A model generated the notes under the pieces. It did not search any database and was not told the origin of the DNA. It was given only the letters and a program-made list of their open reading frames with translations. DNA of 64,000 nucleotides, taken from Deltaproteobacteria bacterium. GTDB lineage: Bacteria > UBA10199 > DSSB01. The translations under genes and the position numbers were made by a program. Shown in pieces: positions 10,577 through 27,294 of the stretch. The stretch lies in contig JACKPJ010000004.1 of assembly GCA_024233625.1 (NCBI GenBank), forward strand, positions 91,905 to 155,904. Reading direction: 5' to 3'. Every line of letters begins with the position of its first letter. Within the stretch, counting starts at the first letter, position 1.

Positions 10577-12259
10577 ATGCCGGGGAGTCATTCTACATCT
10601 GCTTTAGGTGTTCAAATAAGTGTTGCAGAACTTGGGGTTATTCAAAATTTAATGACTGATTACCTTCAGCCGGCTTATTCTCATTTAAAAGGCGGAGAAG
10701 GCATCAATCTGACTCAGCAAGAGTTAGATTTCTACTTTGGAAACGAGTTCAGGGCGAGAGAATTTACCGACTTTCATCAGCAATTTCAAGCTCTGATCAT
10801 GGGTGAGTCTCAGCTGATGTGTTTGGGAGAGGAGTTTCAGGTCGAGTTAAACCCGGCTCAGGCGGCCTTTGCGCGAAGCGTTTTGCTCTTTTCGCAACGC
10901 ATCCAACATTCTACTAATCCTGAACAAGCAAAGGTTCTTGCTCGACTTTTATCTAAAATTGATGTGTCTAGCTATGCAGATTTTGTGGCTTCAGGGCAGG
11001 CGCGCCGTTTTCGACAACACGAAGCTGCTCGGCGTCGTTGGGCAGGCATGGATAGGTCCCAAGCAGTTCAAGATCAATTGCAGGTCATTTCAAGCTTGTC
11101 GATGACAGTGGATTTTTATGAACGGGCTATTGCGTTTACGCTTAAAAAGCTTCTTCCTTTAGAAAACTTGGGGGCATTAGATCGAACTTGGTTGCAAAAT
11201 GAGGGAAGTCAAGTGGTCGAAGATCTTAAAAAGATGGGCATTTATTTGTGGTTAGTCGAAGGAGTACCTTCCCTGCAAGAGGTCGAAGCCGTTATGGAAT
11301 CAGAAGTTGCTCCTCTGCTTCAACCTGGAGAAAGTGTTGAACAAGCCGAGATAGAAATCTTGCGTGTTCGTGAAACAGACGATCGGCAAAGCACTTTAGT
11401 CGTGTTTGTTCAGAGTACAAGTCCTTACAAAAAGATACAGGCAATTGAAATCGATTGGGTGTTTATCACAAACCTGAGTGCCTATTTTAAAGTGATGGAC
11501 TTTCCTTTAAGAACCCAAGAAGAAATTCGTCGTACTCTATATCAAGCTCGGCAAAAAGGGCTCGGATTTTATGTCAAACAAGCCCTTATCGCTAAAGTTG
11601 CTATTCTTCAGCTTCAAGATATTCGTGAAATTTTAAGTAAGGAGGAATTAAGTAGGGAGGAATTGTCGGTTGCAGGTCAGGACCAGAAGTTCAGGCTCAA
11701 GTTCAAAGCTGGTTTGCTGAAAAGGGTTATCTCTGAACTCGAAAAACTGCAACCACTTCATGACTTACTCATGGAGATCGATAGGATGGAAACACATTTT
11801 GGAAGAGCCGATTTATCTGATGGGGGAAGATCGCATCAAGATTCGAGAGTCGGGTTTTCTGGAGCAAATGAAAGGTTTAAAGCTGAAACAAAAGTATTAG
11901 AGAGGCCTCAAAAACCCACTCAAAATGAAAGTTTGGATGTAAGCCCCGATCTAAATGCAGCGTTTCACTCTTTAGTCGATGATATTGCCAACGATAATAG
12001 GCCTGTTGAACAAGCAGTGCTTGACTTTGCAGCACGTTTGATTACTAGTGAAGATCGCCCTGACTGGGCGACTAGTGTCGATATGGTCATTCATGAATTG
12101 CAAAATCAGGGGCCTTATTATGATGAGATTCGCGATCTAACAGGTGATCACGAGCACTTTGATCGTATTATAGTAGAACTGCGTCGCTTTGGTTATTTTG
12201 TTTCAGGAAGTCGACGTCACCGTCGATCAAAGAAGGAAGGTCCACAGTTCCGGCATTAG
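10577..12259 (+). CDS. Orphan paralog P1 (560 aa), family A, basic C-terminus
   Basis: Long ORF with a GAGG RBS 10 nt upstream and 'MPG' N-terminus. No signal peptide or known motif. Clearly paralogous to P2 in the N-terminal, central and C-terminal regions. Ends 'GSRRHRRSKKEGPQFRH'. Confidence 0.75.
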   Translation: MPGSHSTSALGVQISVAELGVIQNLMTDYLQPAYSHLKGGEGINLTQQELDFYFGNEFRAREFTDFHQQFQALIMGESQLMCLGEEFQVELNPAQAAFARSVLLFSQRIQHSTNPEQAKVLARLLSKIDVSSYADFVASGQARRFRQHEAARRRWAGMDRSQAVQDQLQVISSLSMTVDFYERAIAFTLKKLLPLENLGALDRTWLQNEGSQVVEDLKKMGIYLWLVEGVPSLQEVEAVMESEVAPLLQPGESVEQAEIEILRVRETDDRQSTLVVFVQSTSPYKKIQAIEIDWVFITNLSAYFKVMDFPLRTQEEIRRTLYQARQKGLGFYVKQALIAKVAILQLQDIREILSKEELSREELSVAGQDQKFRLKFKAGLLKRVISELEKLQPLHDLLMEIDRMETHFGRADLSDGGRSHQDSRVGFSGANERFKAETKVLERPQKPTQNESLDVSPDLNAAFHSLVDDIANDNRPVEQAVLDFAARLITSEDRPDWATSVDMVIHELQNQGPYYDEIRDLTGDHEHFDRIIVELRRFGYFVSGSRRHRRSKKEGPQFRH

Positions 12260-12332
12260 TAGGCCTATTAAGCTTTTATTCCTGTTTTATAATTGGGACT
12301 AGAGCAGATTAAACAGAGTAAGGATAAAATTT

Positions 12333-25424: not shown

Positions 25425-25497
25425 TCCTCGTGAAAATTCTTATGATTCATCACTAGGATAAAGATTAAACTTTAAATTTAGAGGGAGCGAACCAAAG

Positions 25498-27294
25498 GTG
25501 TTTGGAGAAGTTCAAAAAACTTTAAAAGCCTTATTGCATCCGGACCATGCGGCATTGCGAGAGCAACTTTCAGCGGCTTATGCCGAGGAAGAACAGGTTT
25601 GCGAGCCTTTAGGTGTCGAAGAGCTTCAAGCTTTAAGTGAAGTCCTCACGCGTATGCAAGCAGGAGAGTCGGTTTCTTTAGACCCTCAGCAAATAAATTT
25701 GCTGAACTTAATTGCACGTGTTCAAATCTCCTCAGATAGTTTTAGTATCAAACCTCCTTCTGAGAGTCATCTCTCGGCTGCAGACTCCGCAAGAGTTGTT
25801 TCACCGCTATGGCGCAGCCCGGTCAGACTTTTTAATGCAGAGGAGCGAGCCCGGATTCAACAAATCGTTGCTGAGTTAGAGGATGTGACGGTGATGGATG
25901 CGGAGGGGGTCATCCGACAGACGCAGTATGCTAAAGATCTCCAGGAAAAAATCCAAACTCAGATCAGTGCTCAAGATAAAGAAGCTGTTTTAAAACTTTT
26001 GCTAAATGCCGAAGCTTATGTCGAAGCCAATCAAGCGAGTTTGCAAGTGGGCTCGGCAGCAAGAGCTGCTTTGGTCGGAAATATACTGCGTTTTGAGTTA
26101 ATCTTTGAAGCTTATGACGAATTTTTGATGCTTTTAGAGAATAAAGATACAACTCGTAGCAAGATGCTCCGAGCTAGTCTAAAATTTTTAACTGGAGATG
26201 ATGAAAAAGATATTGAAGACTTAAAACTGGAGCTCGGTCGATTTAAAAAAGAGCTTGGTGAACGCCTTGACGGGAAATACATGTCCGCAAGAAATCGCCA
26301 ACGTAACTTTGAGTTTTTTTTTCGCAAGCATGCCCGACTGGCGGCGATGATGATTGTTTTGACTGAAAGGGGAAGTTATGCAGCGGCTCGTCCCTTTTTA
26401 GAGATTGTGGAACCGGCTTTAGATCCATGGGAAAAAGAACATTTGTCATTTTTGCAACAAGGTCTCTTGGGTGTAGGGCACGACCTTGTAATGGAAACAA
26501 CTCAACCTTTGAGTTTACCTGTAAATAGCAGTTCACAGAGTCCTGTTATTCCTGATGTCGCAGAAATACCTATTTGGCAAGGGCTTGAGGAACGTTTTTT
26601 ATTCGGAGCGGGTTTTTACCCAAATTCAGCCAAGGCATGTGACTTTTTAGCAGAAATTTCTTGGCGTTATGTCTCGCCTGGAAAAGGAATTTCTGGTTAT
26701 CAAGATGTATTAGTTGACGCTTTGAAAAGAAATCTCATTTTTCGTAAGCGAGCCAGCCAAGAAAACTTTGAGCTAGTTTATAGTATTTATCTGCAAAGTT
26801 TTCCAGGCACACCCAAGCGCTCTCAAATAGCTTATGAATTGCTTTACACGATCTACGAAATTAGTCCCCATCCTTACTCATCTTTTGAGAGCTTTTTGGA
26901 GATGATGAGTGAAACAAACTCTACTTCTTCAAGTGTGCTTGATTTTGTTAATGGGCTTTCTGGTGATTCTGTAGCGATTGGAGAAATACGTTTAAGACTA
27001 TTATCCAGAATCATTCTCATTCAAAATTTTCCCTCTCACCCTTGGGTTACAAGAAACTCAGGGATTCTTAGAGAAGAAATGCCTGAGCTATTTACTGGAG
27101 ATTATGAGGGAGAGCATCCCAAGGATACTTTGCGAGAAAATCGTCTCATTCGTGGACGTCGTGCAGTTGGAGTCAGAAGTACTGAGAGAGTGAAGGAAGA
27201 ACCTTATAAAGATCCTATTGATCTTGAAAACGCTCGCAGACGTAGAAAACTTAGACAAAATTCGATTCGGCCTCGAGGACCATTTACAAAGTAA
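25498..27294 (+). CDS. Orphan paralog P8 (598 aa), family B
   Basis: GTG start 10 nt after a GGGAG RBS. N-terminal module 'LSEVLTRMQAGESVSLDPQQINLLNLIARVQ'. Core 'FRKHARLAAMMIVLTERGSYAAARPFL'. Tail 'RGRRAVGVRSTER...RRRRKLRQNSIRPRGPFTK'. Confidence 0.7.
   Translation: MFGEVQKTLKALLHPDHAALREQLSAAYAEEEQVCEPLGVEELQALSEVLTRMQAGESVSLDPQQINLLNLIARVQISSDSFSIKPPSESHLSAADSARVVSPLWRSPVRLFNAEERARIQQIVAELEDVTVMDAEGVIRQTQYAKDLQEKIQTQISAQDKEAVLKLLLNAEAYVEANQASLQVGSAARAALVGNILRFELIFEAYDEFLMLLENKDTTRSKMLRASLKFLTGDDEKDIEDLKLELGRFKKELGERLDGKYMSARNRQRNFEFFFRKHARLAAMMIVLTERGSYAAARPFLEIVEPALDPWEKEHLSFLQQGLLGVGHDLVMETTQPLSLPVNSSSQSPVIPDVAEIPIWQGLEERFLFGAGFYPNSAKACDFLAEISWRYVSPGKGISGYQDVLVDALKRNLIFRKRASQENFELVYSIYLQSFPGTPKRSQIAYELLYTIYEISPHPYSSFESFLEMMSETNSTSSSVLDFVNGLSGDSVAIGEIRLRLLSRIILIQNFPSHPWVTRNSGILREEMPELFTGDYEGEHPKDTLRENRLIRGRRAVGVRSTERVKEEPYKDPIDLENARRRRKLRQNSIRPRGPFTK

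Follow-up and report, generated by a model that had tools for sequence, protein, structure and literature searches.

What might a run of eight consecutive genes be doing between two metabolic operons, when their products resemble one another in part and match no known family? The genes, here named P1 to P8, lie in a 64,000-nucleotide stretch (the window; all positions below are counted from its first nucleotide) that corresponds to positions 91,905 to 155,904, forward strand, of contig JACKPJ010000004.1 (156,243 bp) in assembly GCA_024233625.1. This is a metagenome-assembled genome (MAG) of "Deltaproteobacteria bacterium," and its deposited annotation lists P1 to P8 as hypothetical proteins H7A32_03540-03575. 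A first inspection of the letters, referred to as the sequence-only reading, had described the array as seven diverged paralogs with cationic tails plus one glycine-zipper membrane protein. We regard it as a lineage-specific, tandemly amplified, fast-diverging family of non-enzymatic, mainly α-helical, acidic proteins. By analogy, and tentatively, these proteins may be effector-like cargo with a common C-terminal recognition tail, intended for an export or translocation machine encoded elsewhere.

Kinship of the array proteins and their one outside relative

The eight open reading frames (ORFs) are genuine, native genes. Their coordinates and lengths, all on the plus strand, agree with those first reported (Table 1), and 95.7% of the array block is coding. 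For the shortest, of 392 codons, the calculated chance probability is ∼1e-10, at a stop-codon frequency of ∼0.058 given the array's base composition. GC content, GC content at third codon positions (GC3), and codon usage of all eight fall within the range of the neighboring housekeeping genes. A purine-rich ribosome-binding site (RBS) stands upstream of the seven genes with enough upstream sequence; the claim that every gene has one holds for these seven, and for P5 only the 5-nt gap was read. A reading of the array as a non-coding artefact was rejected. From P1 to P8, the intergenic gaps measure 73, 155, 214, 5, 16, 189, and 73 nt. The tight packing noted at the outset for P4-P5 (5 nt) and P5-P6 (16 nt) is borne out, and because of these two gaps the three genes are probably co-transcribed. 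For P6 the deposited annotation uses a GTG start at 21915, giving 713 aa.

Searches of Pfam, NCBIfam, PADLOC, and PHROGs found no family for any of the eight proteins; the best E values were 0.007 to 0.4, at 9 to 16 bits versus cut-offs of 20 to 600 bits. Two weak PADLOC matches, BrxA on P5 (E = 0.007) and a "2TM effector" model on P6 (E = 0.034), were both far below convincing. Sequences in the PDB, searched by phmmer and hmmsearch with P1, P2, P4, P6, P7, and the core profile described below, gave best E values of 0.15 to 1.5. The statement that these proteins have no known domain or catalytic motif was thus upheld in all five collections. When P4 and P6 were looked up in a word index of 5.8e9 proteins, only the queries themselves came back, tblastn of the same two against plasmids gave no match, and pattern scans of JGI metagenomes (X1, described below, and P1) and of viral contigs (P6 and P4) were empty. 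No literature was found on the run, assembly, or locus-tag identifiers.

A profile of the conserved core of P3, P4, P5, and P8 was searched with HMMER against 1.84 billion cluster representatives, a search that was exhaustive for the core alone. It returned the four proteins themselves (P3 at 5.9e-91, P8 at 9.7e-56), one true outside homologue (P0012, here X1, at 3.8e-13), and one spurious repeat protein (P0013), which was discarded. X1 has 813 aa and is encoded on a 2.8-kb Logan contig (L008) of run SRR26424859, whose GC content (0.44) and GC3 (0.37) are similar to those of the array, and which is too short to reveal a wider gene neighborhood. It is ∼25% identical and retains the N-terminal style, the core, an RLE..QK..FLQALYE module, an SGIASS motif, and the basic end; the core-and-tail architecture is preserved over a long divergence, in a second organism. 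A second gene begins 37 nt past the X1 stop (2727-2795 of the contig) with MTPPRSIPHPQRQLLIQRIDEVL, which resembles the X1 start, MTTPQPTPLTQHTALLNKIDAVI; the contig ends there. Because a gene with a like N terminus follows X1, the family is tandem in that organism too. With one homologue among 1.84 billion representatives, and no curated family or solved structure, the family is new at the sequence level and restricted to a single MAG plus a short contig from a metagenome. Its orphan status also held under profile searches, which placed no protein in a characterized family or system.

Within the array, BLASTP relates P3 to P4 (1e-10), P4 to P5 (3e-4), and P3 and P4 to P8 (about 5e-3), and X1 matches P3 (5e-12), P4 (1e-8 and 3e-6), and P5 (5e-8). 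P1 and P2 match in their C-terminal (6e-5) and N-terminal (2e-3; z = 7.6) parts. To judge from these alignments, two groups are solid: P3, P4, P5, P8, and X1 (subfamily B), and P1 and P2 (subfamily A). The former have in common a helical core of ∼220 aa around (W)..(K)H..L.AL.LVLTG.G..P.A..IL, and P4, P5, and X1 share a further, later module, RLE..QKK...F.QALY. P7 aligns with P4 in two collinear blocks (P7 38-152 with P4 605-733, BLAST E = 0.028; P7 228-380 with P4 737-900, hhalign P = 0.0035), and is probably a short subfamily B relative that lacks the core and is linked by its C-terminal part. The P1/P2 profile matched that of P3, P4, P5, P8, and X1 at E = 0.18 in hhalign, which is not significant, and P6 gave no significant hhalign match to either subfamily.

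Local amplification and divergence, as first proposed, are therefore borne out, and the picture of seven mutually related proteins stands in part: P1 is related to P2; P3, P4, P5, and P8 are related to one another, with P7 weakly attached; and P1/P2 are not significantly related to the rest. An N-terminal module common to all seven lacks statistical support, since leave-one-out hidden Markov models (HMMs) did not separate the left-out members from unrelated ORFs by score. Similarity at the N terminus is limited to certain pairs (z of 3.6 to 4.9 for P5-P8, 3.6 to 4.6 for P7-X1, about 3 for P3-X1, and 2.6 to 3.6 for P1-P5), and P4 pairs with none. The P1-P5 score, together with the Met-Pro start described below, is the only hint of a link between P1/P2 and the rest.

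The only invariant columns of the core are L, L, G, and A, which makes a conserved catalytic site unlikely; no nuclease, ATPase, or protease domain was found. An AlphaFold2 model of the core, from five sequences, was all-helical and of low confidence (predicted local distance difference test [pLDDT], 54; predicted template modeling score [pTM], 0.39). The core is probably α-helical, and the model supports no further structural inference.

The host lineage is deep and uncultured. The window's UvrB is 75 to 78% identical to UvrB of environmental MAGs ("Deltaproteobacteria bacterium," "bacterium," PRO3, and RIFCSP/RBG bins); at the loci of these relatives the neighborhood differs (IspDF-GltX-CysS-x-UvrB), and no family member was present in the fetched loci. 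A scan of GTDB genomes with SPT for synteny gave only a Prevotellaceae gene, at 46% identity.

Logan assemblies of runs SRR12358675/6 also contain the array sequence. Compared with the window, two same-sample Logan contigs show 10 and 7 differences, all inside P1-P3, and none in the housekeeping flank (6.4 kb). Four synonymous and 0 nonsynonymous differences fall in P1 and P2, and codons 149-260 of P3 (14603-14936) hold about 9 nonsynonymous versus 1 synonymous difference. Small as these numbers are, they show P1/P2 to be under purifying selection and the variable part of P3 to be changing fast at the protein level. Contigs covering part of P4 through P5, and part of P6 through P8, are identical to the window (100%). 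The Logan contigs break inside P4 (17449-17503) and in the tandem-repeat region of P6 (22007-22554), which could reflect repeats or strain variation.

The C-terminal tail, the N termini, and P6

P3, P4, P5, P7, and P8 carry the motif SG[IFL][VIAL][SAR][DES], abbreviated SGΦΦSE, at 80, 81, 82, 79, and 78 residues from the C terminus, respectively. The distance is constant (78 to 82 aa) although the proteins span 392 to 912 aa; in X1 it is 71 residues. Variants of the motif are SGIVSD in P3, SGIVSE in P7, and SGIASS in X1. The order of elements in the tail is the same throughout: a basic residue, SGΦΦSE, an acidic patch (10 to 20 aa), an RxRxxRxR-like Arg cluster (RKRGKRSR, RDRSDRTRSRVGR, RGRRVRG, RTRSQRGRQTR, RLIRGRR), a mixed-charge stretch, and a basic terminus (..KGVK, ..KGK, ..FTK, ..RGR, ..FTK, ..RGRK). 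Each tail contains about 19 K/R, about 14 D/E, and few hydrophobic residues (0.11 to 0.23), and is net positive (+5 to +10), whereas the bodies carry net charges of -1 to -30. Over the last 60 aa, the net charge is +7 to +10 in P3, P4, P5, P7, and P8 and only +1/+2 in P1/P2. The cationic tails once attributed to all seven proteins are thus found on five, and P1 and P2 have short basic ends.

A leave-one-out tail HMM recognized P7 at E = 0.008. Because its length is fixed despite weak sequence conservation, we argue that the tail is likely to be a functional module and not merely a disordered end, and we infer that it may be a shared recognition element. An encapsulin cargo peptide was rejected: SGΦΦSE is not terminal, and it is unlike the known cargo peptides.

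The N termini are polar and rich in Pro, Ser, and Thr. Five of the seven family members (P1, P2, P3, P5, and P7) start with Met-Pro, versus 0 of 41 other ORFs in the window (Fisher P = 1.2e-5); P1, P5, and P7 start Met-Pro-Gly, ATGCCGGG, and X1 and the gene after it start MTTP and MTPP. N-terminal processing and a signal are both possibilities. No N-terminal hydrophobic segment was found in any of the eight proteins by the Kyte-Doolittle scale, the only method applied (no 19-aa window with a mean above 1.4), in line with the earlier observation that signal peptides are absent; a Sec or Tat route is accordingly not indicated. Sec-secreted adhesins were rejected as a reading of the array. As for a type III secretion system (T3SS), there was no T3SS Pfam match, P6 included, for which IpaB/SseC-like translocator families were considered, and no small acidic chaperone gene in the array (gaps of 5 to 214 nt); the polar Ser/Thr/Pro-rich N termini are compatible with a T3SS signal, but are not diagnostic. 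A net-positive, Arg-containing C terminus, as expected of VirB/D4 substrates, is present in P3, P4, P5, P7, and P8 and weak in P1/P2. Pfam gave no match to a BID domain upstream of the tail in the C-terminal regions.

P6 is unlike the other proteins, as the sequence-only reading held, with internal repeats and a Gly/Ala-rich hydrophobic region at the C terminus. It has a net charge of -34 and 11 Cys. A tandem repeat of ∼90 aa (aa 13-101 versus 104-195; 22047-22313 and 22320-22595) scores z = 11.7; its units begin P.CDEV and finish D..G....W(K/R)M(S/A)(R/K).F(F/Y)E, and there is a possible third copy near aa 352-418 (z = 2.8). P6 also has a hydrophobic stretch at aa 514-536 (23550-23618) and a Gly/Ala/Thr-rich double hydrophobic segment at aa 606-681 (23826-24053), composed of 606-640 and 645-681 with PADGP between them. 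The C terminus is 18% Gly and 24% Ala, with 12 small-xxx-small spacings in 72 positions. "Glycine-zipper" is apt as a description of composition; as a family assignment it failed, since no glycine-zipper Pfam model matched even at E ≤ 1. The loop between the first and second hydrophobic stretches is K/R-rich which, by the positive-inside rule, points to a cytoplasmic location for most of P6.

Export cargo, intracellular scaffold, and other readings

If the array proteins are indeed cargo, the tail would probably act as a common recognition tag that hands otherwise different proteins to one partner, and this partner would most likely be a machine for export or translocation whose genes lie elsewhere in the genome. 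P6, with its acidic, repeat-containing cytosolic part and a Gly/Ala-rich hydrophobic hairpin, would probably be a membrane-inserted partner or co-cargo, and P1 and P2 would form a second pair, possibly distantly related. The proposal draws on two analogies, one with the C-terminal signals of VirB/D4 substrates, which are Arg-rich and positively charged, and one with tandem arrays of Bep proteins and other effectors. Among the type IV translocation signals documented at C termini are positive-charge clusters and Arg motifs (reviewed in PMC10025392). The lack of Sec signals and of catalytic residues, the extreme divergence, the narrow distribution, and the nonsynonymous polymorphism in P3 all fit the cargo reading.

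Several observations count against export cargo. The DNA inspected amounts to ∼73 kb, namely the 64-kb window and ∼9.4 kb of a Logan contig (L004) past its right end, and it contains no secretion-system, chaperone, or coupling-protein gene. The array is placed between metabolic operons, not in an island, and nothing shows host association or predation for the lineage. The 71-aa tail of X1 has a net charge of 0, leave-one-out support for tail homology is good for P7 only, and the tail, with its ∼19 K/R and ∼14 D/E, is long and mixed-charge compared with the short signals that have been characterized. Basic tails are equally typical of nucleic-acid- or membrane-binding proteins. AlphaFold and Foldseek, suggested with the sequence-only reading, were run and gave no usable model: P6 alone reached a pLDDT of 34, and the low-confidence core model (pLDDT 54) found no fold match in the PDB (best E = 4.5; TM scores of 0.16 to 0.20).

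Nearly as likely as the cargo reading, and like it short of probable, is an intracellular scaffold or tethering complex. The sequence-only reading had already raised both alternatives, a substrate or effector family and a multi-subunit scaffold, with P6 as a possible membrane component, and each stays tentative here. In the scaffold, the hydrophobic hairpin at the C terminus of P6 would anchor it in the inner membrane, and the very acidic cytosolic domain with the repeats would be on display. P6 itself, nucleic acid, polyphosphate, or anionic lipid would be the docking site for the cationic tails (P3, P4, P5, P7, and P8), and the helical bodies would assemble a lineage-specific cytoskeletal, organelle, or nucleoid-associated structure. 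The opposite charges of P6 (-34) and the tails (+5 to +10), the close packing of P4, P5, and P6 (5- and 16-nt gaps), and the K/R-rich loop that suggests a cytoplasmic bulk for P6 speak for such a complex. The chromosomal housekeeping location, the native codon usage, the absence of secretion genes nearby, and the lack of any catalytic residue suit it as well, and the basic C-terminal tails of PhaM and PhaF, which tether polyhydroxyalkanoate (PHA) granules to the nucleoid, offer a parallel. A complex that the cell needed would, however, be expected in related genomes, yet there is one homologue in 1.84e9 representatives and none in the fetched loci of the UvrB relatives. The extreme divergence of the paralogs and the nonsynonymous polymorphism of P3 better fit an arms race or relaxed constraint, and the low-confidence core model shows no obvious long coiled coil of the heptad type.

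That the genes have no joint function at all seems unlikely. They could be lineage-restricted genes, for example an ameliorated remnant of an old insertion that drifts under weak selection, with the shared features reflecting only common descent by duplication; the extremely narrow distribution, the near absence of invariant residues, the nonsynonymous excess in P3, and the interruption of an otherwise metabolic neighborhood all speak for this. But eight intact ORFs of 392 to 912 aa would not outlast neutral drift, and the differences in P1/P2 are synonymous only (4 versus 0). Tail length and motif are retained in five paralogs, the architecture is retained in X1 at ∼25% identity, and codon usage is native. 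Still more improbable, to the point that we give it little weight, is an anti-phage defense, toxin/immunity, or prophage-derived module in which P6 would be a membrane-disrupting effector with a glycine-zipper-like region. Neither PADLOC nor PHROGs gave a significant match, the PADLOC matches that point this way ("2TM effector" on P6, BrxA on P5) being the unconvincing ones given above; the Gly/Ala-rich, hydrophobic C terminus of P6 and the toxin-antitoxin genes elsewhere in the window would accord with such a module, whereas the lack of nuclease, ATPase, and protease domains, of an integrase, and of any viral-contig or plasmid match would not, and seven large non-enzymatic paralogs are unlike the known pattern of defense systems.

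A broader and rather speculative possibility takes in both the cargo and the scaffold readings. The array may represent an undescribed multi-protein system, confined to a barely sampled deltaproteobacteria-like lineage, in which P6 would be a membrane-anchored acidic hub and the paralogous helical proteins would be recognized via a new tail of ∼80 residues; such a system would amount either to a novel type of export or translocation signal together with its family of cargo proteins, or to a new kind of intracellular scaffold. Should the tail prove to be a common recognition signal, the array would supply a cargo family ready for study, and a sequence tag that can be tested, in a little-known lineage, and could point to host-, prey-, or competitor-directed biology there. 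Its practical importance is limited by an uncultured organism, a record of one MAG and one short contig, no visible partner machinery, and no usable structure. Lineage-specific arrays of hypothetical paralogs are common in poorly sampled phyla, and we see this one as a curiosity with a good experimental handle.

Genomic setting and known systems compared

The array lies, as first described, between an spt operon and a thiolase operon. Upstream, on the opposite strand, are genes for an SPT-like class I/II aminotransferase, a weak-GNAT protein, an epimerase-family reductase, and a methyltransferase. On the array's own strand, the downstream genes encode thiolase, 3-hydroxyacyl-CoA dehydrogenase, enoyl-CoA hydratase, acyl-CoA dehydrogenase, methylmalonyl-CoA mutase, BipA, and UvrB. 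The rest of the window and the ∼9.4 kb past its right end contain housekeeping genes and a few toxin-antitoxin genes. No integrase, transposase, phage, secretion-apparatus, or tRNA gene was found in the inspected DNA, which extends what had been noted for the first four kinds of gene; Rfam matched no RNA family in the window, and no repeats bound the array. Nothing flags the block as a recent insertion. A mobile element, prophage, or genomic island was rejected on the grounds of the missing genes, the native composition, the lack of bounding repeats, and the lack of PHROG, viral, or plasmid matches.

Two DNA elements are linked to the array itself (Table 1). The 15-nt heart of the intergenic direct repeat, TCTAAGCAACTTTTT, is present, with at most one mismatch, at those two sites only; the repeat is possibly a common regulatory element or a duplication scar. 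The sigma-70-like site upstream of P1 is a candidate only, since the count of such sites in the divergent region is not above the shuffled expectation.

Table 1. Genes of the array and associated DNA elements (positions in the window)
Feature	Position	Strand	Size	Remarks
P1	10577-12259	+	560 aa	Subfamily A with P2; Met-Pro-Gly start; short basic C-terminal end
P2	12333-14003	+	556 aa	Subfamily A; Met-Pro start
P3	14159-16432	+	757 aa	Subfamily B; helical core 15479-16138; tail module 16190-16429
P4	16647-19385	+	912 aa	Subfamily B; core 17667-18386; tail 19140-19382
P5	19391-21994	+	867 aa	Subfamily B; core 20381-21130; tail 21746-21991
P6	22011-24056	+	681 aa	From ATG with GAGGAA RBS; unrelated to the others
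P7	24246-25424	+	392 aa	Probable short subfamily B relative without core; tail 25185-25421; Met-Pro-Gly start
P8	25498-27294	+	598 aa	GTG start; subfamily B; core 26098-26697; tail 27058-27291
Intergenic direct repeat	14067-14112 (upstream of P3), 16458-16503 (upstream of P4)	+	46 nt	72% identity
Weak sigma-70-like site (candidate)	10523-10550	+		9/12 matches; in 293-nt divergent intergenic region upstream of P1

Other loci of the window were noted in passing. The spt operon (6691-10283, minus strand) comprises the SPT-like aminotransferase (9003-10283), a 409-aa protein with a weak GNAT match only (7880-9109; E = 0.011), and an NAD-dependent epimerase-family protein (6691-7680). We take it to resemble a bacterial sphingolipid cluster, in which, by the Caulobacter pathway, the product of 7880-9109 could be a ceramide synthase and that of 6691-7680 a ceramide reductase. 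Toxin-antitoxin-like genes surround the MeaB GTPase (2176-3168) at the left end (1-3911): RelE-like and MqsA/HTH-like genes at or just upstream of the window start (where contig L006 extends ∼470 bp upstream), a DUF2204/AbiEii-like nucleotidyltransferase (1615-2151), HicA (about 3251-3436), and an HTH protein (3471-3911). MeaB lies 30 kb from methylmalonyl-CoA mutase (32444-34027). A 462-aa protein (39182-40570) has borderline matches to zincin metalloproteases (HExxH region near aa 222-242; Peptidase_M10, E = 3.5e-5) only; the protein encoded just before it (306 aa) has no family. A TRAP solute-binding protein, DctP, stands beside a TatT-type T-component at 47580-49534 (minus strand), the TPR-protein-associated TRAP arrangement. 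A 471-aa protein (61994-63409, minus strand) has a C-terminal FHA domain and also matches "Yop-YscD_cpl"; because no other type III or type VI gene is around, it is probably an ordinary FHA signaling protein.

Among known systems, the Bartonella Bep arrays (BepA-G) are alike in several ways: about seven paralogs stand in tandem as products of local duplication, their bodies are modular and have diverged, the conserved module at the C terminus finishes in a cationic tail, and there is no Sec signal. The bipartite Bep signal consists of a BID domain and a positively charged tail and serves VirB/D4 type IV secretion (PMC10025392). In contrast, the array has neither BID nor any other Pfam domain, no virB or virD4 gene beside it, and a mixed-charge tail of ∼80 aa with SGΦΦSE, and its host belongs to an uncultured environmental lineage. 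We know of no Bep with the SGΦΦSE motif. The Agrobacterium VirB/D4 substrates (VirE2, VirF, and others) likewise have an Arg cluster near a net-positive C terminus (PMC10025392). They share no homology with the array proteins, whose Arg cluster lies 35 to 55 aa from the end rather than in the last ∼20 to 30 aa, and no secretion system was observed in the ∼73 kb inspected of the array genome.

For P6, the closest likeness in layout is to the chlamydial Inc proteins, whose bilobed hydrophobic domain also consists of two adjacent hydrophobic segments with a short loop, in proteins with large soluble parts and no signal peptide. In P6, however, the segments occupy the extreme C terminus and are rich in Gly, Ala, and Thr; the proteins are not homologous, and the inspected DNA shows no type III system. 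The small-xxx-small spacings and Gly/Ala content recall the Pfam families Gly-zipper_Omp, Gly-zipper_YMGG, and Rick_17kDa_Anti, none of which P6 matches, even at E ≤ 1. PhaM and PhaF resemble the array proteins in joining a helical body to a basic, probably disordered C-terminal tail, and a thiolase operon adjoins the array. The array has no phasin or other domain, however, its tails are Arg-rich and mixed-charge rather than Lys/Ala/Pro repeats, and the neighboring operon is of the β-oxidation/butyrate type (3HCDH, ECH, ACAD), with no PHA synthase. In kind, the array is comparable to tandem families already known, in which cargo or scaffold proteins bear a tail tag.

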